From Dictyostelium discoideum (taxonomy: Eukaryota): a DNA stretch of 64,000 bases. The position numbers and the translations under genes are program-made. The notes under the pieces were generated by a model. It was not told the DNA's origin and ran no database searches. It saw only the letters and a program-made list of their open reading frames with translations. Within the stretch, counting starts at the first letter, position 1; every line of letters begins with the position of its first letter. Location of the stretch: NCBI GenBank assembly GCA_000004695.1, contig CM000152.2, forward strand, positions 5,696,001 to 5,760,000, in the 5' to 3' direction. Shown in pieces: positions 2,677 to 56,170 of the stretch.

Positions 2677-3821
2677 GTGTATGGGGTGTAAGTTTAAACA
2701 GAAAAAAAAAAAAATAAAAATAAAAAAGAAAAATAATAAATTAAGTTATTTTTTATTTTATTTTTTTAAAAAAAAAATAAAAAAATAAAAATAATTATTA
2801 TTATTATTAATTAAATAAATAAATAAATAAATAAACAAATAAAATAAAATTTTTTTTTGGGGTTTTTTTTTTTTTTTTAATAATGCACAAAAAAAAAATA
2901 TATATATATTTATTTGTGTATGAATTGTAGTTAATGGAATGATGATGTGTGATGGATGTAAATTTTTTGTGTGTTTGTTATTTTTAATTATTTTAATTTT
3001 TTTTTTTAATTTTTTTTTTTTTTTATTTAAAAATTATTATTGCAATTATTATAATTATTATAATTATATCAAATTATTATTATTTTTATCACTATTATTA
3101 CTATTATTACTATTATTGCTTTTATTATGGGTTTTTTTTTTTTTTTTTTAAAAGATTAAAATAAAAAAAAATAATAAAAAATAAAATAAAATAAAATTTT
3201 ATTATTATTTATTTTTAAATTTTTTGATATGGGTATCTCGCATTAATAATATAGATATATGGTGTGTTTTTTATGAGTGTGTGAGCTCACGAATAAGAGG
3301 TGTGTGATATAAATTTTTTTTTTTTTTTTTTTTTTTTAATTTTTTTTTTTTTAAAATTTATATATATTTTTTTTTTATATAAGTAAAACTTTAATTTTAT
3401 ATAGTTTTTTTAATTTTTTTGAATGTGTAAATAGCAGTCTTGTATGTAAATTTATAAAGTGGATTATTTATTTTAGATTAAAAAAAAAAAAATTGAAAAA
3501 TAATTAAAAAAAAAAAAAGTAAAAAAAAAAAACTTTGTGCGTACTCTTTCGTTCAAATCTAGATTCATATAATTTTTATATGAAAAAAAAAAAAAAATCA
3601 AAAAATAAAATGAAAAAAAAAATCAAAAAAAAAATCAAAAAAAAAAAAAAAAAAAAAAAAAAAACAAAAATAAATAAAAAAAAACAAAAAAATTCTGATA
3701 AAATAAAAAATAAAAAATAAAAAATAAAATTAATAAAAAAAAAAAAAAAAAAATATTTATATGATTTATTTGAAAAATTTTAAATTAAAAAATAATTTTA
3801 TTTAATTAATTAAAATAAAAA

Positions 3822-6800
3822 TTAAACGGTTGCTTCAATTGGTTTCTCAGACTTTAAATTTGGCGAGAATTTTAAAACTGAATAAGGAATATTTGAGGTT
3901 AAACTTGGTGCAATACTATTAATTAAACTATTACCATTATTATTGATATTATTATTACTATTATTATTGATATTATTATTTAGACCATTATTATTATTAT
4001 TATTATTATTGATATTATTGATATTATTCATATTATTATTAGGATTATTATTATTAGGATTATTATTATTATTATTATTAATAATTTGTTTTCTTGATTT
4101 ATCTTTAAAGAATAAAACGATAATTAAAATGACAACAGCACAAATTGCAATATAACCAGTGATAGCTAATTGTGAAGAATCGGTTTCATTTGGATAACGA
4201 TCACTACCACGAGTATTTGGTACGGTTAGAGGTGGAATAACTTTATCACGTTGTTCCCATGTGATATTTAAGTATTTCTCTAAATTGGGCCATTGTGGAT
4301 CAGGGAATTGATTTGGATAGATTTGATTACCACAAGTTTGAGCCAACATGACCGATTCAGGTTTACTAACGATCTTGGAAAACTTTTTCATCTCTTTAAT
4401 TGAACCACTATCGGTTGTTCTACTTGGTAGTTCCAATTGTTTTAATGATTTTGAAATTGGTAATAACGGTCTATGTAATGTGCCAATGGTTGGGAAATAA
4501 TTGGTAATTGAAGGACTACCCTCTTTCAATACTGATAAAATATCTTCAATTAACCAAAAACAATCTAACCTATTCTTATCCTTATTTGGTGATTCATCTA
4601 AACAATTTGAATCACCAAATACAACAATATTACCACTTGAATAAATTGAATTATCTTCTTTTTTTTCTTTATTCTTTTTATTATTATTATCACTATTACT
4701 ATTATTATTATTACTATTGCTATTATTACTATCACTATTACTGTTGGTACTACTACTACTACTAGTACTACTACTAGTATTATCAACAATACTATTATCA
4801 GAACTATCTTGAGTTGATTCATCATCATTATTATTAATACTTGATTCAATATTATTATTATTTTTTAAAATTCTTTTTGAAATTATAGTTGAATTTGAAT
4901 CATTAGTTGAATCAGAACTATCAGAACTATGTTCATTTTCTAAAGTTGTTGGTTGAAAGAAACCTAATACAGGTACTTTTGATTGTGAAGTTCTACCTTT
5001 AGTGATGAGACGAGTTTGATCTACTAATGAAGCTTCTAAAATTTTACCACCAGCAGGGAAACCAATGATAGAGGTACCTGATGAAAATGTTGAAACTTTA
5101 TTACCTACAGAGAATTCACCATTGTAAATACTATCACCAAAATAAATTCCAAACACTGATAGGAAATCATTGAGAGCTGGTACATTTGAACCACCAGTAG
5201 CGGGTGACCATAATTGTTGAGTATTATCATCATGAAATTCAATTAATTTCATCACCTCGGTATTATACCAATCTGCGAAAACTATTAAATTCAAACCATG
5301 ATTTCTAACATCCTCTTCAATCTTTTTAATTTCTGATGGTAAAAACTCTTCCTCTGGGTCAATGATCATCAATGTACCATAGTTTGATGGATTGAAACAA
5401 GTCAATGGTGAGCCAATCACCTCTACAAAGTAACCCAATTGTGTTAACTTTCCATAAAGTTTTCTAAAATTGGTATGAATATGATCACCATTCCAATCGA
5501 ATGGTTCATTCTTTGTTTCCAATGAATCACGTGGGAAAAATCCTAATGGATAACGTAGATTATGAAATTGATCCCAAAGTATACGACGTTCTCTTGGTGG
5601 TTTTGGTATAATTTGAACACGTACAGGTAATTGTATTGTATAATAATTTCTAGATAATGTTGATTTAATATTATTATTGTTGATATTATTATTATTATTA
5701 TTATCAATTGCAATTATAACTTCAACAGAACCTTCAGCAACACCATTAAATGATTGTGATTCTTCAGGTACAGTAAAGAAAATACCTAAATGACCAGTCC
5801 ATGGCCAAATGGTTGATTGATAAGAAAAGTCAACTTTTAAATGATGACCATTTCTAGAGGCATTCCAATAGGTGTTTACAATTTCACCACTTACACTAAT
5901 ACCATTTAGAATGGTAGCATTCACAATGATTGGCATTGAGGTATGATAAAGTTTTTGAGTACAATAAGGCCAGAGGTATGGACATGTATCTTTATTAGTT
6001 GGTAAGAAATCCAATTGTGATGGTGATATGGTTATCTTGGGTCTGTAATGATCCAATAGGCTCTTTGCACCCAATACGTTCAATTTGCCATTACCCTGTT
6101 CGAAAATACCTGCATTTTTAATTTTTTCAGCACTTTCAATGAGAACTTGCTTCATTGAGGAGGGGTTGATAATGCTTTTATCCTTCACAGTTGAGATTAG
6201 CAATGCAATGGCACCACTCACCACTGGTGAAGAGACTGAAGTGCCCGATAATGCTTTACAATTATCATCATGACCATTCAATGGCGAGCCGTAAACACCC
6301 GATCCATAGGCCACGATGTCTGGTTTAACCCTACCATATCCATGTGGTAGTTCCCATGTGGTCATACCTCTGCTAGAGAATGATGCCAATTGGTCGTTGT
6401 AATCTATACCACCCACACCAATCACATCGGATTGGTCGGCTGGGTTATTTAAAGTACCATACAACGGACCGTCATTGCCAATGGCCGAAACCACAATGAT
6501 CTTATTTGCAGACACTTCCCACACCTTTTCAACAAATGGTTTATCCATGAAATCAGGTCCACCAATTGAAAGATTCAATACGTCAACTTTGGTTAGAATC
6601 ACATGATTGAAGGCATCAATGAACCAACTTGTGAATGAAACCTTCTCAGAATTGAAAACCCTATAGATATAAATCTCTGCATCTGGTGCAAAACCCATAC
6701 ATTTCTCTGAGGAACTTGCAATTATACCCGTAACAAATGTACCATGACCAATGGTATCAGTATTACTCTTTTTCTTATTTTCAACTTTTTCACGTGCCCA

Positions 6801-7110
6801 ATCGGTTATCTCTACAACATTTGAAAAATGAGGATGATCCTTTGCCAAACCTGTATCAAATACTGCAACTTTTGTACCTCTACCTGTGAATCCTTGATTC
6901 CACAATTTCCTCACATTAAACAAATCCGTAATCTGTATATGATCATTAATCGATTTCAATTTTCTACCAACACTTTGATTATAATCTCTACCATTCATCT
7001 CTAAATCAATCATTTCTTCTGGTATCTCTTGATGAATTCTACCATACATTTTTAAATTATCATTAATTTCATTATCATTTTTATTATTATTATTTTCATC
7101 ATCTTCATTT

Positions 7111-7151
<41 letters not shown>

Positions 7152-7817
7152 ATTATCATCTTCACTACTTGTTTGCCATTTTTTTAACATTGATTCATGA
7201 ATTTTTCTTTCTGGAAATATATGTTTAATATTTGAATCTTGTGATAGAATTTTTAAAATTGGATCTAATGATGATTGTTTATTACTTGTGATTTCTACTA
7301 ATGCAAAATCAGATGGATATTTTGAAGCTGGATTATTTCTTGGTATAATTTTCCAATCAATTAATTGATTTTGATTTTTTATACTTTGTTTTATCTTTTT
7401 TTCATTTCTATTAAGAATTTCATTTAAATAAGATTGATGCTCTTTTTGATCAATATACTTTTTAAACATTATTATATATTCTTTTACTAAATTATTTTTA
7501 TTTTTATTTTTAAATTCATTATCATTTATTAATAATGGTGATACATTTGTTGATGTTTTTATTATTGTTGTTGTTGAACAATTATTATATTCTTTAAAAT
7601 TTACAAAATTATTATTATTATTATTATCATTATTGTTATTATTATTATTATTACTATTATTATTATTATTATAAGCTACTACTACATTTTTACTATTACT
7701 ATTTAAATTATTATTATTATTATTTTTATTATTAAAAATATTTAAACTATCACTATATAAAAAAATTAAAATAAATGTTATGGTAAAAAACCATTTATAG
7801 TTTATTATTGTAATCAT
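3822..7817 (-). CDS. mbtps1: Site-1 protease (membrane-bound transcription factor peptidase S1P/MBTPS1-like subtilisin/kexin-family serine protease), 1331 aa, single exon
   Basis: Signal peptide (MITIINYKWFFTITFILIFLY). Subtilase catalytic residues in order: D in VAVFDTGLAKDHPHF, H in DTIGHGTFVTGIIAS, N in AIGNDGP, S in LSGTSVSSPVVSGAIALL. Large poly-Asn/Ser inserts, C-terminal TM helix (ITGYIAICAVVILIIVLFF) and a basic/Asn-rich tail, as in S1P. Confidence 0.85.
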
Positions 7818-7985
7818 TTTTTTTTGATTTTTTTTATTTTGATTTTTTTTATTCTTTTTCTTATTCTTTTTAATTTTTTTAAATTTTTTTATTATTATAA
7901 TTTTTTTATATACATATAGATTTTGTTGGTGAGTAGTTTTTTTTAGTGCGAGAAAAAAAGAGTTATGTGAAAAAAAAAAAAATTT

Positions 7986-8022
<37 letters not shown>

Positions 8023-8422
8023 TAATTTTTTTTTTTTTTATTTTTATTTAATTTTTTTAATTGCCTTTCCGAGAATCCACATCTTTTTACACAAAAAAAA
8101 AAAAAACAAAAAAATATAAAAAAAAACTAAAAAAAGATAAAAAAGATAAAAAAAACCAAAAAAGAATAAATAAAAATAAAAAAGATATAAATAAGAAATA
8201 ATAAAATTTAATCGTTTCGTTTTTAGAAATCGAGCTGTAAAGTTTTTTTTTTTTTGAAATTTAACAAATCTTATCTTTTTGGAACAATAAAATTTAAAAA
8301 TAAATATCCATTTATTGATTTATTGTTATTTTAAAATTTTATTGTTAATTTTATTGTTTTGTAATTATTGTTATAGTTTTATTATTACTATTTTTCTTTA
8401 TTAAAGAAACTTTTTAAATAGT

Positions 8423-8681
8423 TTAAAGACCAGCTTTATTTAAACTCTCAGCAACATTAAACAATAAACCACTAACTAAACCAGTTTGGACTTTATTTTC
8501 AGTGAATTGGATCATTGAGTTTTTATTATCAATCAAGGTTGATTTGGTTGAGTTAACTTTAGAGATTGATGAAATTGAAGCTAAATTAAAATAAATTAAA
8601 ATTATTAGTATTTTTTTTTATTTTTTATTTTTTTTTTTTTTCCCAATATTTTAATAATTAATATTTACCAAAGAGAGACAT
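8423..8681 (-). CDS. Small protein (~56 aa), 2 exons: complement(join(8423..8580,8669..8681)); paralog of the gene at 9279..9529
   Basis: 13-nt first exon ATGTCTCTCTTTG (MSLF-) then GTAAAT donor; second exon after TTTAG acceptor encodes ASISSISKVNSTKSTLIDNKNSMIQFTENKVQTGLVSGLLFNVAESLNKAGL-stop. Near-identical architecture and ~70% aa identity to the divergent neighbour. Confidence 0.6.
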
Positions 8682-9170
8682 TTTTTAATTATTTGATTAT
8701 AATTGATTGTTTTGATTTGATGAAATTTTTTTTTATTTTATCTTATTTATACTTTTTTTTTTTTTAATGATAAATTTTTTTTTTTTTTTTTTTTTTTATT
8801 TTTATTGTTATTGTTGATTTTAATTTTTTGTAAAAGAGAATACCCAATAAAAAGAAATATTTTAAAAAATTATAGTATTAAATGTCGTGAATTAATTTAA
8901 ATTAATCTTTGACATTTTAAAATTGTAATTCGTTTTAAAATTTTGTAAAATTGTTTTCAAAAATTAATTAGTTGTAAATCATTTTTTTAAAAAATTATGG
9001 GGTCAAAGAAATAATAATATACTCATTAATTAATTAATTGTTTTTTTTTTTTTTTTTTAACACACAACTACCAAATAATTAGTATTTTCTTCATTTTTTT
9101 CGGTAATATTTTAAAAATTATACCTTAAATCTTCGGCTAATTAAATATTAAAAATAATTTATTTATTATA

Positions 9171-9207
<37 letters not shown>

Positions 9208-9278
9208 GATATATAAATAATCATTTTTTTTTCTTTTTTTCAAAAACATAAATCAAATAAAACTAATCAAAATTTAAA

Positions 9279-9529
9279 ATGTCTCTCTTTGGTAAATATT
9301 TATGGTTTATATATATTTTAATATTATAAAAAACAATTAATCTAATTTTTAATTAATAAATGAAGATTCAATTTCTTCAATCTCCAAAGTTATTTCAACA
9401 CCAAATAAGTCATATTTGAATAATAATAAAAATTCAATGGCCCAATTCACTGAAAATAATGTCCAATCAGGTCTCGTTAGTGGTTTATTATTTAATGTTG
9501 CTGAAAGTTTAAATAAAGCCGGTCTTTAA
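9279..9529 (+). CDS. Small protein (~58 aa), 2 exons: join(9279..9291,9366..9529); paralog of 8423..8681
   Basis: Same 13-nt first exon ATGTCTCTCTTTG + GTAAAT donor; exon 2 after TGAAG acceptor encodes DSISSISKVISTPNKSYLNNNKNSMAQFTENNVQSGLVSGLLFNVAESLNKAGL-stop. Confidence 0.6.
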
Positions 9530-10516
9530 AATAAAACCTTTAAAAATGTCAAATCCATTTATCTAATATTACAATTACAATTAATAAAATTACGTCATTA
9601 TTTTTGAAATTTTAAAATATTTAAAAACAGATTTTTTTTTTTAATTTTTTTATTTTTTAAAATTGTGTTAATTTTATATTTATAATTTTATCCCCGATAA
9701 AAATTTTAACCCCTAAATTTATTTTAATATAGGAAATAAATAAAAAAATAAAAACCCAACAATAAAAAAACAAAAAAAAAAAAAAAAATAAAAACAAAAA
9801 AAAGAAATAAAAATATTATAAAACCAGAAATTTAAAATAACTAAAACTTTAAAAATTACAATTAAAATAAAAAAAAAAAAAAACAATAACATAAAACAAT
9901 GTTATTTATTAATTTTAACGAAAGTGATATAAAAAATATTGGTTCAAATTCAACAATTTTATCAAACCATTCAAATTGTAATATATTCCCAAATGATGAA
10001 AATTATTTAAACAATATTAAAAATAATGAAAGAAGTAATATAGATCAAACCATCCTTTGTCTAACTTCAAAATTTCAAAATTTAAATTATCAATAAAAAC
10101 CAATAATTAATAAATTTTTATTACTACATAGGTTTTTTTTTTTTTTTTTTTTTTTTTTCGAAACCCAGACAGTAAAAAATAAAAGATTATTTATTTTTTT
10201 TTATTTTTTGTGTAATAATGTTTAAAATTTATATTAGAATTTTTTTAAAATAAAAAGGAATTAGTTTATTTATGAATTTTTTTTTTTTTTTTTAAGATAA
10301 TAGTTTAAAATATATATAAAATTAATTAAATAATATCCAATTAGAGATTATTTTATTTTGGGTGCATTAAATTGACCTATATGTTGCGATTAAGTTTTTC
10401 AATTATTGGTATTGTCAAAAAACAATAATACATTTTTTCAGTGTTATTTTTTTGGGCCATTTGGTTGACTCTGTTTTTGAACGAAGTTCGGATTTTGTTC
10501 TACCAAGTAAAAATTT

Positions 10517-10587
10517 TGCGTATGCCGGGAATCGAACCCGGTTCAACTGCTTGGAAGGCAGCTATCATACCACTAGACCACATACGC
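10517..10587 (-). tRNA. tRNA-Gly (anticodon UCC), copy 1
   Basis: Reverse complement is GCGTATGTGGTCTAGTGGTATGATAGCTGCCTTCCAAGCAGTTGAACCGGGTTCGATTCCCGGCATACGCA: 7-bp acceptor stem, D arm, anticodon stem GCTGC/GCAGT with loop CTTCCAA (T33, anticodon TCC, A37), T arm GGGTTCGATTCCC. Very close to the metazoan tRNA-Gly-TCC sequence as I recall it (from memory; not re-verified). Followed by an oligo(T) terminator on the coding strand. Confidence 0.9.
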
Positions 10588-10631
10588 TTTGTTGATGATT
10601 TTTTGTAGTTAATGCTCAAATAAGTTTTAAT

Positions 10632-10845
10632 AAAAAATTTGATTATTTACACACGTAGCACAACCATCAAACCTCAATAAATATATTACATCACTCAACA
10701 CACTCTACCCCCAACTTTAAAAAAAAAAAAACCATATAAGGTAAAAAAGGCACCTGTAAAATATTTAATAATAAAACGAGATATATCTCAAGAAAAAGCA
10801 ACTAAAAATTGCTTTATTCCATTCAAAAAAAAAAAAATTTTGATT
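10632..10845 (+). mobile_element. Short 5'-truncated non-LTR retroelement 3' tail (~190 bp, same type as the 3' end of the element at 12535..14205), inserted ~57 bp upstream of tRNA-Gly copy 1; flanked by a target-site duplication
   Basis: Lower-AT block 10645..10837 ends ...gagatatatctcaagaaaaagcaactaaaaattgctttattccattc-A13, homologous to the 3' terminus at 14110..14190 (...gagatctagcatctcaaggagaagcaaataataattgcgttatccaattc-A12). Direct repeat aaaaaatttgatt (10632-10644) / aaaattttgatt (10834-10845) flanks it. Confidence 0.5.
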
Positions 10846-10953
10846 ATTTTTTTTTTATTTATTTATATATTTATTTTTAAATACGCTTCATTGATGAATT
10901 TTTTAATGAATTATGAACGAAGTTCGGATTTTGTTTTACCCAAGCAAAAATTT

Positions 10954-11024
10954 TGCGTATGCCGGGAATCGAACCCGGTTCAACTGCTTGGAAGGCAGCT
11001 ATCATACCACTAGACCACATACGC
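10954..11024 (-). tRNA. tRNA-Gly (anticodon UCC), copy 2 (identical mature sequence to copy 1)
   Basis: Same 71-nt sequence as 10517..10587. Flanks are also duplicated (10479-10612 vs 10913-11046), i.e. a ~435-bp tandem duplication of the tRNA unit. Confidence 0.9.
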
Positions 11025-11070
11025 TTTGTTAATGAGATTTTTGTAATAAAGTCACTCTATAAAATTAATA

Positions 11071-12268
11071 TTAAGCAAAGTAGATGATACGGTGAACAAA
11101 CTGGAAAACCTCACAAAATGCTATTCGAGCGTGTCATCAACGCTAAAAGGTAGAATCACAATCCTCAAATCATACCTGCTGTCCCAACTAACATTCCAAC
11201 TATACATCAACGAAATAAATGACATAAAGAAACTGGAGAACGTTAATGCCAACATGTTATTCAAAGGGGACAGGTGGGCTATCTCAAAAGAAAGGAGCAG
11301 AAGAGACTATGAAATTGGAGGCCTGGAACTCTGGAATATGGCAACCAGATCCAATGCCCAGAAAGCATGGATATACGAACAATACCTCAGAGAAAAAGAC
11401 GACCAGAACTGCCCTCCACATATGGAAGTCTGGAAGTCGGAAAAAGAAAACTCACTATCAAGGATTCACATCAAATGCTGGAAAGCCTGGAAGTTGTTGC
11501 ACCACCCAAGAGAGCGAATAACTCTCAAACTAAACCAAGTCAAACCCAAATACGAAAACAAACAAAAATTAAAAGTAATCTATAGAAACATGATGGATAT
11601 CAAATACAAGGGATGGAACAAACACCAGCCAACAACAGGTCAAAAACTGATTCAAAAGAACATTAATCACCCAATTCTACCATTCAGAGAAGCCAGATCA
11701 ATCACAACTATCAAAGGAAGAGACTTAGCATGGAGATATCTACTCAAGGCACTTCCAAAACACCATGGGGAGAATTGCCACTCATGTAAAGAAGAAGAAT
11801 CGTCTATGCACATCTTCTTCGAATGCAAATCAATAAAACAGAATATCGACTCAATCTATCAAAAGGTCTGTAAAGACTCCAACAACACTTACCACGGTCC
11901 ATGGAGCGAAAAAGTTCTCGGAAAACTACTCACACCATTCTCATCAAATCTGATAGGAGCCATTATGGAATCGATATGGTACAGAAGAAATCAAATAAAA
12001 TTCAACGATAACACTACAATAATAACAGAGACCCAAATAATTCATAAAATCAAAAAAGCGAGAGATGCCGAATGGGATAGAACAAGAAAGATAGTAGAAA
12101 AACAACTACGTCAAGAACTAAGATGCACTGATAACCGAGAGTCAATCAATCGGACCGCATCAATAAAAAGAAGACTCGAAAAATTCAGCCACAACTGGAA
12201 CTCGAAACTCATGCCCATAAACATCCCGGAACACTTCATACCATACTGCTCATATAACACCAACTACT

Positions 12269-12313
<45 letters not shown>

Positions 12314-12436
12314 ATAACAATAATAATAATAATAATAATATAATAATAATAATAATATAATAATAATAATATAATAATAATAATAATATAATAATAATAA
12401 TAATAAAAAAAAAAATAAGAATAACAAGAAAAAAAG

Positions 12437-12470
<34 letters not shown>

Positions 12471-12534
12471 AAATAAACTCTCATAGAACACACTCAAATT
12501 GAGTGATGTTATTAAAAAAAAAAAAAAATTAATA
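11071..12534 (+). mobile_element. 5'-truncated tRNA-gene-targeted non-LTR retrotransposon (TRE5-like), type 'A' tail: C-terminal ORF2 fragment (11092..12273, 393 aa) + A-rich/(AATAAT)n tail + terminal ...caaataaactctcatagaacacactcaaattgagtgatgttatt-A15
   Basis: ORF has non-LTR ORF2 C-terminal features (YLLSQLTF..., GGLELWN, KGRDLAWRYLLKALP, C-x2-C-x7-H-x3-C motif CHSCKEEESSMHIFFECK, WYRRN, AEWDRT). It starts 46 bp upstream of tRNA-Gly copy 2 in head-to-head orientation. Flanked by the duplicated target ...(tc)tataaaattaata (11061-11070 and 12525-12534). Confidence 0.65.
12312..12410. repeat. (AATAAT)n/(AATAATATAAT)n microsatellite in the 3' tail of the type-A element (repeated at 14283..14385)
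   Basis: Direct reading: ataataataataataatataataataataataatataat... Confidence 0.8.
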
Positions 12535-13687
12535 TTAACTCAACTTCATCAACCTATATGGGCAGACTCATAATGGCAAAAACATATGCACTATCTCAGT
12601 TAACGTTCCACACTTACATCAACACCACACCACAACACAATAGTATTGAAAATAACATCGTAAAATTTGTTTTCAACACAAAATCTAAAAACTCTCTTTC
12701 ACTACAAAGAAGACAAAACAACTATATCAATGGTGGCCTAAACTTATGGAACCTGAAGACAAGAGAACTAGCACAGAAAGCATGGCTATTCGAAAGATAC
12801 CTCCACCAAAGAGTAAGTAACACTCCTAGTTCATATATAAAACTGTGGGAAGAGGAACTCAAAAACAACAACAACAACAAAACAACAACAAAACAAAAGC
12901 AACTACAACTACACTGGCAATGCAAGCAAGCATGGACCCAATTAAAAACTCCACAAAATAAACAAACACATTACGAACACCTCCCAAAATTAAAAAAAAT
13001 ATACGAGGATATGATGACAACTCAATCTCCTGAACACAACAAATTCATACCAACTCCTGGCCAAAAAGAAATAATGACCAAAATTAATAGCAAACACCTT
13101 CCATTTAAAGAAATCAAAAAAATAATAAACATGAAAGGTAGAGATCTATTATGGAGATACACACTGAAAGCACTACCAAAAATATACAACATGCCATGCC
13201 AACAGTGTGGGGAAGATGAGACTTCAGAACATATATTCTTCAACTGCAAAGCCCACATCAAAAACACACAAGAAATCTTCAACTACACCCTAACTAAGTG
13301 TGGACACACCACTCACACCTGGAATGTGAAGATTTTAAACCATCTACAAATTGCACTAGTAGCCAATTTAATAGCTATTATATTCGAAAAAATCTGGCAC
13401 AAAAGAAATAAACTCATTCACGATGAAAAAGAAATAATAATTCACAGACAACAAGTCATACGTGAACTAATTAAAACACAAAGAGCTGCATGGGACAGGA
13501 CACAAGCGGTTATAAACAAAACATTAAGAATCAAATCAAAGCAACGGCCAGAAGAACAAAATAAATTAGACTCACTAATCTCGCTAAAGCTATTACAATT
13601 TAGCAGACAATGGAACTCACCTCTTCATGCAATAGAACTTCCTAAACATCTCAAAAAATACAATAATTCACTCAGTACTTTCTATAA

Positions 13688-13739
<52 letters not shown>

Positions 13740-14031
13740 GGAACCCAAGTTAATCAGAAAATTTCCAGATTTTTAACTTTTTAAAGAAAAATAAAAAAGA
13801 TAGAAAGAAAATAAAATGAAAATCACAAACAACACCACAAATATTAAGCAACACAAATGCCTACAAAAAATAAGCGAAATTGTGGATAAAACTCAATTAA
13901 AAAAAAAACAATTCAAATACGTCATAAACATCAATCACGAACCAGACGATAAAATAAAAAAAGATTTAGAAAAAAGTTTGGACAAAAAAGATGTTTTAAT
14001 CAAAAGTAATAATACAATTCAAAATTCGAAA

Positions 14032-14069
<38 letters not shown>

Positions 14070-14205
14070 TAAACCAACCCCTCTTTTAGAGACCCTGTAA
14101 AAAAAAAAAAAATAAAATAAAATAAAATGAGATCTAGCATCTCAAGGAGAAGCAAATAATAATTGCGTTATCCAATTCAAAAAAAAAAAATCTATAAAAT
14201 TAATA
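12535..14205 (+). mobile_element. Second 5'-truncated TRE5-like non-LTR element, type 'B': ORF2 C-terminal fragment (12558..13691, 377 aa) + A48 + ~400-bp 3' module + A24 + terminal ...gcaaataataattgcgttatccaattc-A12
   Basis: ORF is homologous to, but clearly diverged from, the 11092 ORF (ALSQLTFHTYIN, GGLNLWN, KGRDLLWRYTLKALPK, CQQCGEDETSEHIFFNCK, WHKRN, AWDRT). Bounded by target-site duplicates aaaattaata at 12525-12534 and tctataaaattaata at 14191-14205. Confidence 0.6.
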
Positions 14206-14252
14206 GACCCGGAACACTTCATACCATACTGCTCATATAACACCAACTACTC

Positions 14253-14283
<31 letters not shown>

Positions 14284-14338
14284 AACAATAATAATAATAA
14301 TAATAATATAATAATAATAATAATAAAATAATAATAAT

Positions 14339-14372
<34 letters not shown>

Positions 14373-14385
14373 TAAGAATAACAAG

Positions 14386-14437
<52 letters not shown>

Positions 14438-14498
14438 AAACTCTCCTAGAACACACTCAAATTGAGTGATGTTATTAAAAAAAAAAAAAAAATTAATA
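14206..14498 (+). mobile_element. Third, severely 5'-truncated type-'A' TRE5-like tail (last 16 codons of ORF2 + tail), near-identical to 12225..12534
   Basis: ggaacacttcataccatactgctcatataacaccaactactcataa + A-run + (AATAAT)n + ...caaataaactctcctagaacacactcaaattgagtgatgttatt-A16, then the target duplicate aaaattaata (14489-14498), then unique flank. Confidence 0.6.
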
Positions 14499-14801
14499 GA
14501 TATTAAATATGCTTATTACATTACTAATTATAGTTGACACACATTTAAATAATATAATAATAATAATAATAATAATACTGTCAACTCATTATAAATAATA
14601 TAAATACTAAAGAATAATTTTATTAACAATATTGAATATCATAAAATATATATTAATATTAAATAAAGATAACAAAATATTATTCAATTATATAATTATT
14701 AATTATATATATTATAAAGTTAACAAGCTTCATTACATTTTGAAGTAAATGCTCAAACAAGTTTTATATCAAATAATTTTATTTTTTTATCAATTTTATT
14801 T

Positions 14802-16216
14802 TTAAATGCAAGTGGGTATGTAACAACATTTCCCGCAATCATTTGGATCCGCCTCATTATAACAAAATGGAGCCAGTATATATTTACACTTTGAACCTTC
14901 TGATTTTTCACAATCCAAAGAATCACAAGATAAACAATCTGATTGAAATTTAATACATTTTGGTCGAATTTTATCAGATAAGTGGTAGTGTTCCACGCAA
15001 ACTGAGTCGTGTGGACAGGTATAATTTTGGCAAATGGATTTATGAGGTATATTTATTTCTTCGATTGGAACTGTAATAATAATGTGTGACCCATCAACAA
15101 TATACCCAGATGATTGATAACCGGTATCAATGCTAGAAGTTGGGTCGCTAGTATAAAATGATGTTGAGGTGGCTGATCCTGTTGTTGGAGTTGTTGTTGC
15201 TGATCCTGTTGTTGATCCTGTTGTTGGAGTTGTTGTTGCTGATCCTGTTGTTGATCCTGTTGTTGATCCTGTTGTTGCTAATCCTGTTGTTGGAGTTGTT
15301 GCTGATCCTGTTGTTGCTGATCCTGTTGTTGCTGATCCTGTTGTTGCTGATCCTGTTGTTGCTGATCCTGTTGTCGGAGTTGAAGAAGCTGTTATTGTTG
15401 TTTCTTTGCCTGTTGTTGAAGTTTTTGAGGTTGTAGTAGATGCTAGTCCTGTACTTGAAGTTAATGTCGATCCAGTTGTTTTTCCTGTACTTGAAGCTGG
15501 AGTAGTAGTCTTTCCTATTGTTGATCCAGTTGTAGAGGTAGTAGTCTTTCCTATTGTTGTTAAAGTTGTTGAAGTAGGGGTCTTTCCTACTGTTGATCCA
15601 GTTGTAGGGGTAGTAGTCTTTCCTATTGTTGATCCAGTTGTAGAGGTAGTAGTCTTTCCTATTGTCGTTAAAGTTGTAAAGGAAGGGATCTTTCCTATTG
15701 TTGTTAAAGCTGTTGAAGTAGTGGCCTTTCCAGTTGTTGAAGTTGAAGGTGCTGTAGTGGTAGTTGTAGGTGATGTAGTGGTAGTTGTAGGTGATGTAGT
15801 GGTAGTTGTGGGTGATGTAGTGGTAGTAGTTGTTAATGTTGTGGGTGATGTGGTGGTGGTGGTTGTAGCTCCTGTTGTTGAAGTTGTAGGTGATGCAGTT
15901 GTTGTTATTGTTGTTGTTGTTGTTTTTCCTATAGTTGGTCCTACAGTTGTTGTAGAGGTTGTGGGTGATGTGGTAGTTGTTGTTCCTGTAGTTGTGGAAG
16001 TTGTAGGTGATGTGATGGTTGTTGCCCCTGTAGTTGTAGGTGATGTGGTGGTTGTTGTTGCTCCTGTAGTTGTAGGTGATGTGGTGGTTGTTGTTGCTCC
16101 TGTAGTTGTTAAAGTAGTGGTCTTTCCTGTTGTTGATACATTAGTTGTTGAAGTTGTAGGTGATGTAGTGGTTGTTGTTGTTCCTGTAGTTGTTGATGTT
16201 GTGGGTGATATAGTGG

Positions 16217-16254
<38 letters not shown>

Positions 16255-16272
16255 GCTGTTGTTGTTGTTGCT

Positions 16273-16305
<33 letters not shown>

Positions 16306-17232
16306 CCAGTAGTTGTAGAGGTTGTAGGTGATGTTGTTGTTGCTCCTGAAGTTGTGGATGAAGTAGCCATTCCTGTTGTATTTGTTATTGTAGTGGTCCC
16401 CACACATTGTGGAGTTTTTGAGCAACAATGAGATCCTAAACATTGTGTGGTTTGGACATACTCACATGGTGATCCTTGACAGTCAATTTCTGAACATTTT
16501 TGAGCTTTAATTTTAAATAAAAAAAAAAAAAATAAAAAAAAAATTAGGGGTTATTTTTATTTTTTTTAATTAATCACTAATTTCATAAAATACTTACGAG
16601 GTATGTTATAAACTTCAAAATCTTTTTGAGGTATACATATAGACCAAAGCTCGATGATTTGATTAGTTGATTTTTGAATGACACATGATAAATTATTTCT
16701 ATAACAATGATTCAAAGGATCATTTATACATACATTAACTTGTTGACCACAACAACCAGGAAATACCAACCATTTACAATTGGGGTAGTATGAATTACAA
16801 TTTTGTTCAACGGTAATATCTTCACAATCAACTATTTAATAATAATTTTTAATTTTAATTTTTTTTTTTTTTTTTTTTTTTTTAACTAATAATTATTATT
16901 ATTTACTTACAATCATTTCTTGGGAGAGTTGTTCGTCCAAGATTTGTTGGCGCAAAACTGGGTGAGCATGTGTCATCTATGCAACTGGTTCCCTCTGGAC
17001 ATAAATTTGTAAGTGTACATGACCCATTGAAACACATATTTTTTAGGCAACCATTATCGTTGGTAGTGTCACATTCTACTGATGAGTATCGACATCCTTT
17101 TCCTTCAACACAAGATTCTATTGTACATGGATCGGAATCATCACATTTCAATTTACTGCAAGGTTCAATTGAATTTACTAAATAAAATAATAAAAATAAA
17201 TTAATAATTAATAAAAAAATTATTTTTAATTT

Positions 17233-17235
<3 letters not shown>
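14802..17235 (-). CDS. Secreted cysteine-rich (EGF-like) + Thr/Gly/Ser-rich mucin-like extracellular protein, 3 exons: complement(join(14802..16504,16598..16831,16911..17235)), ~753 aa
   Basis: Exon 1 has a signal peptide (MKLKIIFLLIINLFLLFYLVNS) and Cys-rich modules (EPCSKLKCDDSDPCTIESCVEGKGCRYSSVECD...). Exon 2 is Cys-rich (DCEDITVEQNCNSYYPNCKWLVFPGCCGQQVNVCINDP...). Exon 3 is a ~450-aa Thr-rich (TTTG/TTSP) mucin-like region plus a C-terminal Cys-rich domain. Donors GTAAGT x2; acceptors AATAG and TAAAG. Confidence 0.7.

Positions 17236-17323
<88 letters not shown>
17236..17323. repeat. ~88-nt homopolymeric dT tract immediately 5' (on the coding strand, poly-dA) of the mucin-like gene start codon
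   Basis: Uninterrupted T run from 17236 to ~17323. Confidence 0.9.
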
Positions 17324-39048: not shown

Positions 39049-39412
39049 ATGAAGTTTAATTTTTATTGTAGAATTATTTTATTATTTTCATTTGTTTTTT
39101 TATTTAAACAAATAAATTCCACAGGTGTTTTTTTAGAAGACTATCACAGATGTAGAGAACGATGTGAAATAAAAAATACCAATAATAATTTTTTAACGAG
39201 TAAATAAAATTAAAATTTTTTTTTTTTTTTTTTTTTTTCAATAATAATATTAATAATTAATTATTTTAAAAAATTAGTTACTATTAAAACTGAATATAGT
39301 TATTCAGAGGAATTTGATCAATGCAAAGAAGCTTGCCAAACTAAAAATAACAATTTATTACAAGGTAATTTCTATTTAAATTTTATTTTAATTTTAATTT
39401 TAATAATTTTAA

Positions 39413-55385: not shown

Positions 55386-55467
55386 GACATCGTAGCGAAG
55401 TGGTCTAACGCGTTTGACTTGAAATCAAATCTCCTAGGAGGCGCAGGTTCGAACCCTGCCGATGTCG
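55386..55467 (+). tRNA. tRNA-Ser (anticodon UGA), class II with long variable arm
   Basis: GACATCG TA GCGAAGTGGTCTAACGCG TTTGA CTTGAAA TCAAA TCTCCTAGGAGGCG CAGG TTCGAAC CCTG CCGATGTCG: acceptor stem GACATCG/CGATGTC, anticodon stem TTTGA/TCAAA, loop CTTGAAA (anticodon TGA), 14-nt variable arm, canonical T arm. Confidence 0.85.
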
Positions 55468-56170
55468 ATAATTTTCAGTGGTGGTAAAAATGACGCAGGT
55501 TCGATTCTGTATAACAATACACACCAAACAAATCCCTAATTCAACACCATTCAAATTATTTGATTTAAATTTATGTCTTTAAGTTTTTGCTACATCTGCG
55601 TAAAGAAAACACTAGAACTAATCAAATTGAAAAACTTCACATTCATTGAAACAGGTATAGTCAAACAAAGGCCACCAAAGAAACAGATACAAAAACAATA
55701 ATGTTTTAACAGAACTACACAAAATAATAGGAATGATCGTGGGAATGATCGTGGTGAAGTTAACCAATACAAAGCAAATCTTCGATTCCACAAAGATTAC
55801 TTTTATTCCACAAAGATTACTTTGAGAGGGAAATCAATGTGTAAATTATGACCTATCTAGATACTTATAGAAACATAATTCATAACACCTGGGTTTGGAT
55901 CTACAATCAATTGTATAGCGACAAACCCTCCACAGATGAAAAACTATCTGTATTTAAATCTAAAAACTCTTAAATAAACCACGATTTTTTTTAATACCTT
56001 AATATTTCAAATAATTAATATCTGAAAAAAAAAAAAAAACCATCCTAACTACAAATTGACATTGAAGCTTCTTTTGCCTCAAATATATGCAACACTACTA
56101 AATACATTATACCTAATAAAATTAAAATTTTCTTAACATGTTATAATTAGTGAAAAAAAAAAAAAAAAAA
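55468..56170. mobile_element. Non-AT-rich, non-coding block with internal tandem repeats immediately downstream of tRNA-Ser; candidate remnant of a tRNA-targeted retroelement (TRE3-type tail or solo LTR); begins with a partial copy of the tRNA T-arm
   Basis: Composition is clearly G+C-richer than the flanks, with stops in all frames. Tandem ggaatgatcgtg x2 (55729-55753) and ttccacaaagattacttt x2 (55785-55824). gacgcaggttcgattc at 55492-55507 copies the tRNA-Ser T-arm. Dictyostelium TRE3/Skipper-2 elements are known to integrate downstream of tRNA genes. Confidence 0.3.

Follow-up and report, generated by a model that had tools for sequence, protein, structure and literature searches.

Features of the locus

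The DNA stretch analysed here (the window, 64,000 nt of AT-rich DNA from Dictyostelium discoideum AX4) carries a stack of three non-long-terminal-repeat (non-LTR) retrotransposon tails of the TRE5 group, termed E1, E2 and E3, next to a tRNA-Gly(UCC) gene. The tRNA genes were called with ARAGORN. The three segments lie on the plus strand, at higher coordinates than the second of two tRNA-Gly genes, and an A-run stands at the 3' end of each. The original prediction, made from the letters of this stretch, of three oligo(A)-ended elements in the same orientation and head-to-head with the minus-strand tRNA-Gly gene that ends at 11024 is borne out by the sequence and the ARAGORN calls. Its division into three segments also stands, but the bounds first given to them include duplicated target; the refined elements span 11075-12524, 12537-14190 and 14208-14488.

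Each of E1, E2 and E3 begins at its own internal position (5' truncation) and finishes at the natural 3' end followed by oligo(A). At their original positions, the 5' ends of all three lie 46-50 bp upstream of the tRNA +1 (11024). A fourth insertion, a short tail assigned below to a TRE5-C type, is found upstream of the other tRNA-Gly gene. All four plus-strand insertions are arranged alike relative to the minus-strand tRNAs, with the element 5' ends facing the tRNA 5' ends (4/4). The features are listed in Table 1.

Table 1. Features of the window, with strand and the basis of each assignment.
Feature	Position	Strand	Basis and remarks
E1, putative TRE5-B type, 5'-truncated	11075-12524	+	Family members 99.0-99.6% identical; no C-module; absent from L004
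E2, 3' part of a TRE5-A.1 element, 5'-truncated	12537-14190	+	Assigned from DDB_G0282405 identity, ORF2-B-C architecture and C-module bases
E3, putative short TRE5-B-type tail	14208-14488	+	blastn against 12225-12534, alignment, tblastn; present in L004
Putative TRE5-C-type tail	10650-10836	+	187 bp, ~62 bp upstream of tRNA-Gly #1; outside the coordinates of the original prediction
E1 duplication AAAATTAATATTAA (14-mer)	11061-11074 and 12525-12538	+	3' copy spans TT 12535-12536 and extends two bases into E2
E2 duplication TCTATAAAATTAATA, 5' copy	11056-11070	+	tRNA-proximal copy of the original target; 3' copy at 14191-14205
E3 duplication AAAATTAATAGA	14196-14207 and 14489-14500	+	GA is distal flank; undisturbed flank beyond
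tRNA-Gly(UCC) #1	10517-10587	-	ARAGORN
tRNA-Gly(UCC) #2	10954-11024	-	ARAGORN; 5' end 11024 faces the stack and positions the stack as target
tRNA-Ser	55386-55467	+	ARAGORN

The two tRNA-Gly(UCC) genes belong to a tandem duplication (10475-10607 and 10911-11045, 95% identity), the unit of which includes ~43 bp of downstream and ~20 bp of upstream flank. Both copies of the duplication carry their own TRE5 insertion or insertions.

Junction repeats and target-site duplications

A 10-mer, AAAATTAATA, is shared by all four junctions of the stack (11061-70, 12525-34, 14196-205 and 14489-98), which are the positions at which a recurring motif had been predicted. The accompanying claim, that the same target-site duplication flanks every element, holds in part: the 10-mer is common to all junctions, but the full duplications of E1, E2 and E3 overlap without being identical and range in length from 12 to 15 bp. 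The E2 duplication TCTATAAAATTAATA was found in the window at 11056 and 14191 and nowhere else, with 0.37 occurrences expected when at most one mismatch is allowed. The E3 duplication AAAATTAATAGA was likewise restricted to 14196 and 14489, and the E1 duplication AAAATTAATATTAA occurred at 11061, 12525 and one unrelated site at 39409 (0.18 expected). E1 and E3 have their A-tails joined to the target at AAAA, where the primed strand offers a run of T, an L1-like behaviour; E2 is joined five bases closer to the tRNA.

Further copies of these families were inspected at three loci from other D. discoideum assemblies. A TRE5-A upstream of tRNA-Met (L001, 5742-7820) is flanked on both sides by ttaataaatata, a TRE5 tandem upstream of tRNA-Phe (L002, 3081-11860) has ttcattacaaa at three junctions, and a TRE5 tandem upstream of tRNA-Leu (L003, 7804-9775) has tatatatacattct at three junctions. 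The fourth insertion of the window, which ends at 10836, is followed by ttttgattattt and not by the motif of the stack. The junction repeats are duplicated target, as had been proposed, since the longer forms are confined to the junctions but for the unrelated site at 39409, the other copies of the families end in locus-specific repeats, and an empty site in a second strain (L004, described below) has the motif.

Assignment of the elements to TRE5 families

E2 is identified as TRE5-A from its annotation, the ORF2-B-C architecture of its 3' end and the bases of its C-module. The open reading frame (ORF) of E2 (12537-13691) is stop-free over 384 codons, represents the tail of ORF2 and terminates at 13689-13691. 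The family consensus (..TW/NSTSS) sets the start at 12537, and the TT at 12535-12536 is non-templated. By exact look-up, the ORF at 12573-13688 matched DDB_G0282405 (XP_640029.1) of AX4, which appears as 'DDB_G0282405_RTE, TRE5-A ORF2' in Table 2 of PMC12405889. The stop codon is followed by an A-run, the B-module (13736-14032), a second A-run, the C-module (14068-14178) and oligo(A) (14179-14190). The B-module of 297 nt, with the ORF1-start ATG ORF at 13816, shares 92.7% identity with the 5' region of an element in L002. An ORF2-B-C 3' end is specific to TRE5-A.1, in which the B-module of ~290 bp contains the ORF1 start and the C-module measures 134-137 bp (PMC3159450). Mutagenesis of the C-module named the bases T15, C26, A35 and C38, numbered from the 3' end (PMC3159450), and all four are present in E2 when counted back from 14178. 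E2 and the TRE5-A copy at tRNA-Met in L001 share 97.7% DNA identity.

The ORF of E1 (11071-12273) is stop-free over 400 codons, represents the C-terminal part of ORF2 and terminates at 12271-12273. The first homologous base of E1 is put at 11074 or 11075 by the family consensus (..GV-I-SKVDD), and the boundaries are ambiguous by 1 nt at the 5' end and by 4 A at the 3' end. A 339-amino-acid ORF within it (11254-12270) was an exact match to DDB_G0282755 (XP_640028.1) of AX4, a protein in a cluster of 39 members; exact look-up found no record of the exact E1 ORF in any other assembly among those searched. Several D. discoideum proteins, up to 1056 amino acids long, match the 400 residues at 99.0-99.6% identity. 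The stop is followed by two A-runs with (ATA)n between them and then by 44 nt of unique sequence that form the 3' end and include a hairpin (12470-12513); oligo(A) starts at 12514.

E3 contains the last 15 ORF2 codons, the 3' untranslated region (UTR) and oligo(A). The predicted duplication between 12225-12534 and 14206-14498 was recovered by blastn with dust filtering, which gave a 90% match for 14208-14498. E3 and the tail of E1 differ by two substitutions in their unique parts, and nearly all other differences are in the lengths of the A-runs and (ATA)n. The repeats were resolved by the dust-filtered search; a generic repeat finder run on 10400-15200 was swamped by the A-runs and (ATA)n.

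The C-module had no match in E1 or E3, which end in microsatellites and the 44-nt unique tail, and neither has a 3' B-module. According to PMC3159450, a terminal C-module is found in TRE5-A and in TRE5-C and is missing from TRE5-B, which like TRE5-C is also without a 3' B-module. Because both modules are absent, E1 and E3 are assigned to a putative TRE5-B type; the assignment is by elimination, three TRE5 families having been described, and uses 3'-end architecture and not identity to a reference sequence. TRE5-B-like subfamilies in L002 and L003 reach only 78-82% (DNA) or 54% (protein) identity to E1.

A terminal hairpin is found at the 3' ends of the TRE5-B-type copies in the window (12487-12510 and 14450-14473), in L002 (11809-11832) and in L003 (9562-9587). 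Its pairings across the diverged subfamilies are CACUCA-AAU-UGAGUG, CACCCA-AAU-UGGGUG and AUCUCA-AAU-UGGGAU, with compensatory changes that maintain the stem, and its folding z-scores range from -2.4 to -3.5. In TRE5-A the stem-loop of the C-module is essential, and the hairpin may be its equivalent.

Two alternating element types with related but diverged, CCHC-carrying ORF2 C-termini had been predicted, and both types are recognizable: the former type A corresponds to the putative TRE5-B type and type B to TRE5-A. The ORFs of E1 and E2 share 37% identity over 386 amino acids (E = 3e-78), and both carry a C-x2-C-x7-H-x4-C motif (CHSCKEEESSMHIFFEC and CQQCGEDETSEHIFFNC). Pfam returned a single match for the truncated ORFs, a sub-threshold zf-RVT. 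The expected homology to ORF2 proteins is seen in their relatives and in the TRE5-A ORF2 annotation of DDB_G0282405. The 99%-identical relatives of E1 carry RVT_1 (E ~1e-37) just upstream of the point at which E1 starts, and so do the 99%-identical full-length relatives of E2 (E = 1e-33 to 1e-37 across the relatives of both), together with a weak Exo_endo_phos match that falls below the Pfam cut-off. Because these near-identical longer proteins carry RVT_1 and the weak endonuclease match, the ORFs of E1 and E2 are the tails, downstream of the reverse transcriptase (RT), of APE-RT-zinc-finger ORF2 proteins, and the copies in the stack keep this post-RT part with the CCHC motif.

The fourth insertion comprises the last 23 ORF2 codons (...NLNKYITSLNTLYPQL, then stop), an A-run, a diverged C-module variant and oligo(A), without a B-module, and is flanked by tttgattattt at 10638-10648 and 10839-10849. 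A global alignment with the TRE5-A C-module gave 68% identity over its full length and visibly higher identity over the last ~50 nt, and a script found 1 of the 4 TRE5-A marker bases to match. The C-module of TRE5-C follows directly after ORF2 and has a published identity of about 78%, over 87 bp, to that of TRE5-A.1. The architecture of the 3' end and elimination point to a TRE5-C type. At 62 bp, this tail is outside the distance of ~47 bp and within the published range of 37-211 bp.

Insertion order and comparison with a second strain

The locus was compared with one other D. discoideum assembly, GCA_054883475.1, in which the orthologous locus (L004) was reached via the exact ORF of E2. Positions 1-7966 of L004 are 99.86% identical to positions 3100-11074 of the window; over these 7975 bp there are 2 substitutions and 3 homopolymer indels. 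Positions 7953-12651 of L004 are 99.3% identical to 12525-17255. L004 shares with the window the two tRNA-Gly genes, the tail at 10650-10836, E2 and E3. It lacks E1, and its empty site reads cactctataaaattaatattaactcaac, with a single copy of the 14-mer. The presence of E1 is thus polymorphic between the two strains. Since E1 is missing from a locus that has E2 and E3, the element proximal to the tRNA is the youngest, which agrees for E1 with the predicted rule that the nearest element is the last to arrive.

The duplications record the same order. The 3' duplication of E2 keeps TCTAT, which is exclusive to the unique tRNA-proximal DNA, so E2 abutted that DNA when it inserted. The duplication of E1 contains nucleotides that were created by the insertion of E2 (TT and the A(A) with which E2 starts), and E1 is therefore later than E2. 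E3 is probably the oldest of the three layers; that it preceded E2 is inferred from the published distance rule and not from the sequence.

Proposed mechanism and alternative explanations

[quoted passage not shown] Targeting needs both TFIIIC and the B box, the ORF1 protein interacts with subunits of TFIIIB, and the RNA polymerase III (Pol III) factors on the tRNA gene position the pre-integration complex (PMC5391098, PMC5911963). Of 98 genes that were already occupied, 91 were hit by tagged TRE5-A (PMC5391098, PMC5911963). The stack agrees with the published interval and strict orientation, as the original prediction had anticipated from its position and orientation, and it displays the hallmarks of target-primed reverse transcription, namely oligo(A), target-site duplications of variable length, 5' truncation, extra nucleotides at a 5' junction and a single-copy empty site. 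We are highly confident that the stack is a TRE-TRE tandem, built by three independent target-primed reverse transcription events of Dictyostelium tRNA-gene-targeted non-LTR retrotransposons within one interval, 46-50 bp upstream of tRNA-Gly(UCC). E3 would have inserted first (duplicating AAAATTAATAGA), E2 second (TCTATAAAATTAATA, with two extra T at its 5' end) and E1 last (AAAATTAATATTAA). Each integration would duplicate 12-15 bp of target, and the tRNA-proximal copy would rebuild the site at an unchanged distance. As this copy restores the site, the next element would land there and push the older elements outward uninterrupted.

Some points weigh against parts of this interpretation. The names TRE5-B and TRE5-C follow from the make-up of the 3' ends and from setting aside the other described TRE5 families, the duplications alone leave the order of E3 and E2 unfixed because either order gives the same sequence, and the comparison covers a single other strain. 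In addition, the same empty site would result if E1 were old and had been lost precisely from the other strain by recombination between the 14-bp repeats, in which case the site would not be ancestral. A single repeat copy is expected from loss and from non-insertion alike. Loss is nevertheless highly unlikely: recombination between 14-bp repeats is rare next to retrotransposition when the family is abundant and homogeneous, many other copies match E1 at 99.0-99.6% identity, and the strains differ by 2 substitutions in 8 kb. The nucleotides of E2 origin inside the E1 duplication place E1 after E2 regardless.

A history without three insertions, in which the array arose by duplication or unequal crossing-over with E3 as a copy of the E1 tail, or by read-through of a composite transcript (3' transduction), is extremely unlikely, even though E3 and the E1 tail are almost identical in their unique parts. 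E3 is present in the strain without E1, and each element starts at a different internal position and ends at its natural 3' end with oligo(A). The internal junctions carry the local TCTATAAAATTAATA, continuous with the unique tRNA-proximal DNA, where a composite would bring the flank of its source locus; duplication and 3' transduction are excluded on these grounds. An origin of the recurring motif from the ends of the elements, and not from duplicated target, has next to no probability. The shorter ttaata also follows the oligo(A) of TRE5-A in L001, but there it belongs to the local duplication ttaataaatata, which is found at the 5' side next to tRNA-Met as well; an element-borne ttaata was accordingly rejected. 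The other repeats in L002 and L003, the ttttgattattt after the tail ending at 10836 and the presence of the motif without E1 in L004 argue in the same direction.

Returning to the reading of the stack as three successive integrations, we consider it rather likely that E1 is a TRE5-B-type insertion that post-dates the split of AX4 from a strain with ~0.03% flank difference. TRE5-B would thus have been recently mobile, beyond the experimentally studied TRE5-A, and nested duplications in such stacks could serve as a genome-wide relative clock of TRE family activity.

Neighbouring features

An ORF of 1331 codons on the minus strand (3822-7817) encodes a site-1-protease (MBTPS1)-like subtilase, with its top database match in D. 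purpureum (68%). The homology search gave no D. discoideum orthologue for it, seemingly through a gap in the database and not for a biological reason. A minus-strand ORF of 533 codons (14802-16403), the product of which is Thr/Ser/Gly-rich and repetitive with a Cys-rich C-terminus, comes next on the distal side of the stack. It is part of a 753-amino-acid gene model in the annotation of the other strain, and its 3' end is ~300 bp from the stack.

Downstream of tRNA-Ser, ggttcgattc at 55498-55507 resembles an external B box and is followed by ~530 bp of non-coding, oligo(A)-terminated DNA (region 55498-56040). Positions 55875-55948 are 86% identical to sequence adjoining the TRE5-A in L001. The stretch at 55498-56040 may be the tail of a TRE3-type or other tRNA-associated element.

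Comparison with known systems

The stack is a known arrangement of known families and a clean example of documented behaviour, with no new kind of element or mechanism; its novelty is low because TRE-TRE tandems at occupied tRNA genes have already been described. Modestly new are the strain-polymorphic insertion of putative TRE5-B type and the layer order, which is read from nested duplications and revealed by the junction nucleotides included in each duplication. The locus offers a compact, fully resolved example of position-specific retrotransposons reusing one safe site in a gene-dense genome. With the target rebuilt at each integration, older copies would be shunted outward intact, and the stack would preserve the order of insertion. 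The polymorphic TRE5-B-type insertion may serve as a marker of strain history and hints at recent activity.

Among the described elements, TRE5-A (formerly DRE, L1-clade) resembles E2 in 3' architecture, C-module bases and head-to-head position ~46-48 bp upstream. In contrast to TRE5-A, E2 is without the A-module, the 5' B-module, ORF1 and the APE or RT part, and, 5'-truncated in this way, it is a dead copy. In common with TRE5-B, E1 and E3 show the TRE5 position and orientation, and the C-terminal part of their ORF2 shares 37% identity with its TRE5-A equivalent. They differ from TRE5-B in being 5'-truncated, and their 3' UTR with (ATA)n/A-run microsatellites and a short terminal hairpin goes unmentioned in the cited papers. 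The insertion at 10650-10836 is similar to TRE5-C in that the end of ORF2 stands directly before a diverged C-module, followed by oligo(A), with a target-site duplication and a position upstream of a tRNA gene. However, it is only 187 bp long and 62 bp from the tRNA, and its C-module identity is 68% compared to the published 78% over 87 bp.

The arrangement as a whole is closest to the TRE-TRE tandems of Spaller et al. 2017 (PMC5391098), in which a new element is placed ~47 bp upstream of an occupied tRNA gene and the resident element stays uninterrupted. Unlike those tandems, the stack described here is natural and comprises three layers of two families, and its order is readable from nested duplications and from strain polymorphism. 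LTR elements directed by Pol III are similar in that the Pol III transcription complex guides targeting and the upstream regions of tRNA genes are repeatedly reused; they differ in inserting by integrase and not by target-primed reverse transcription, and they show neither oligo(A) tails nor 5' truncation.

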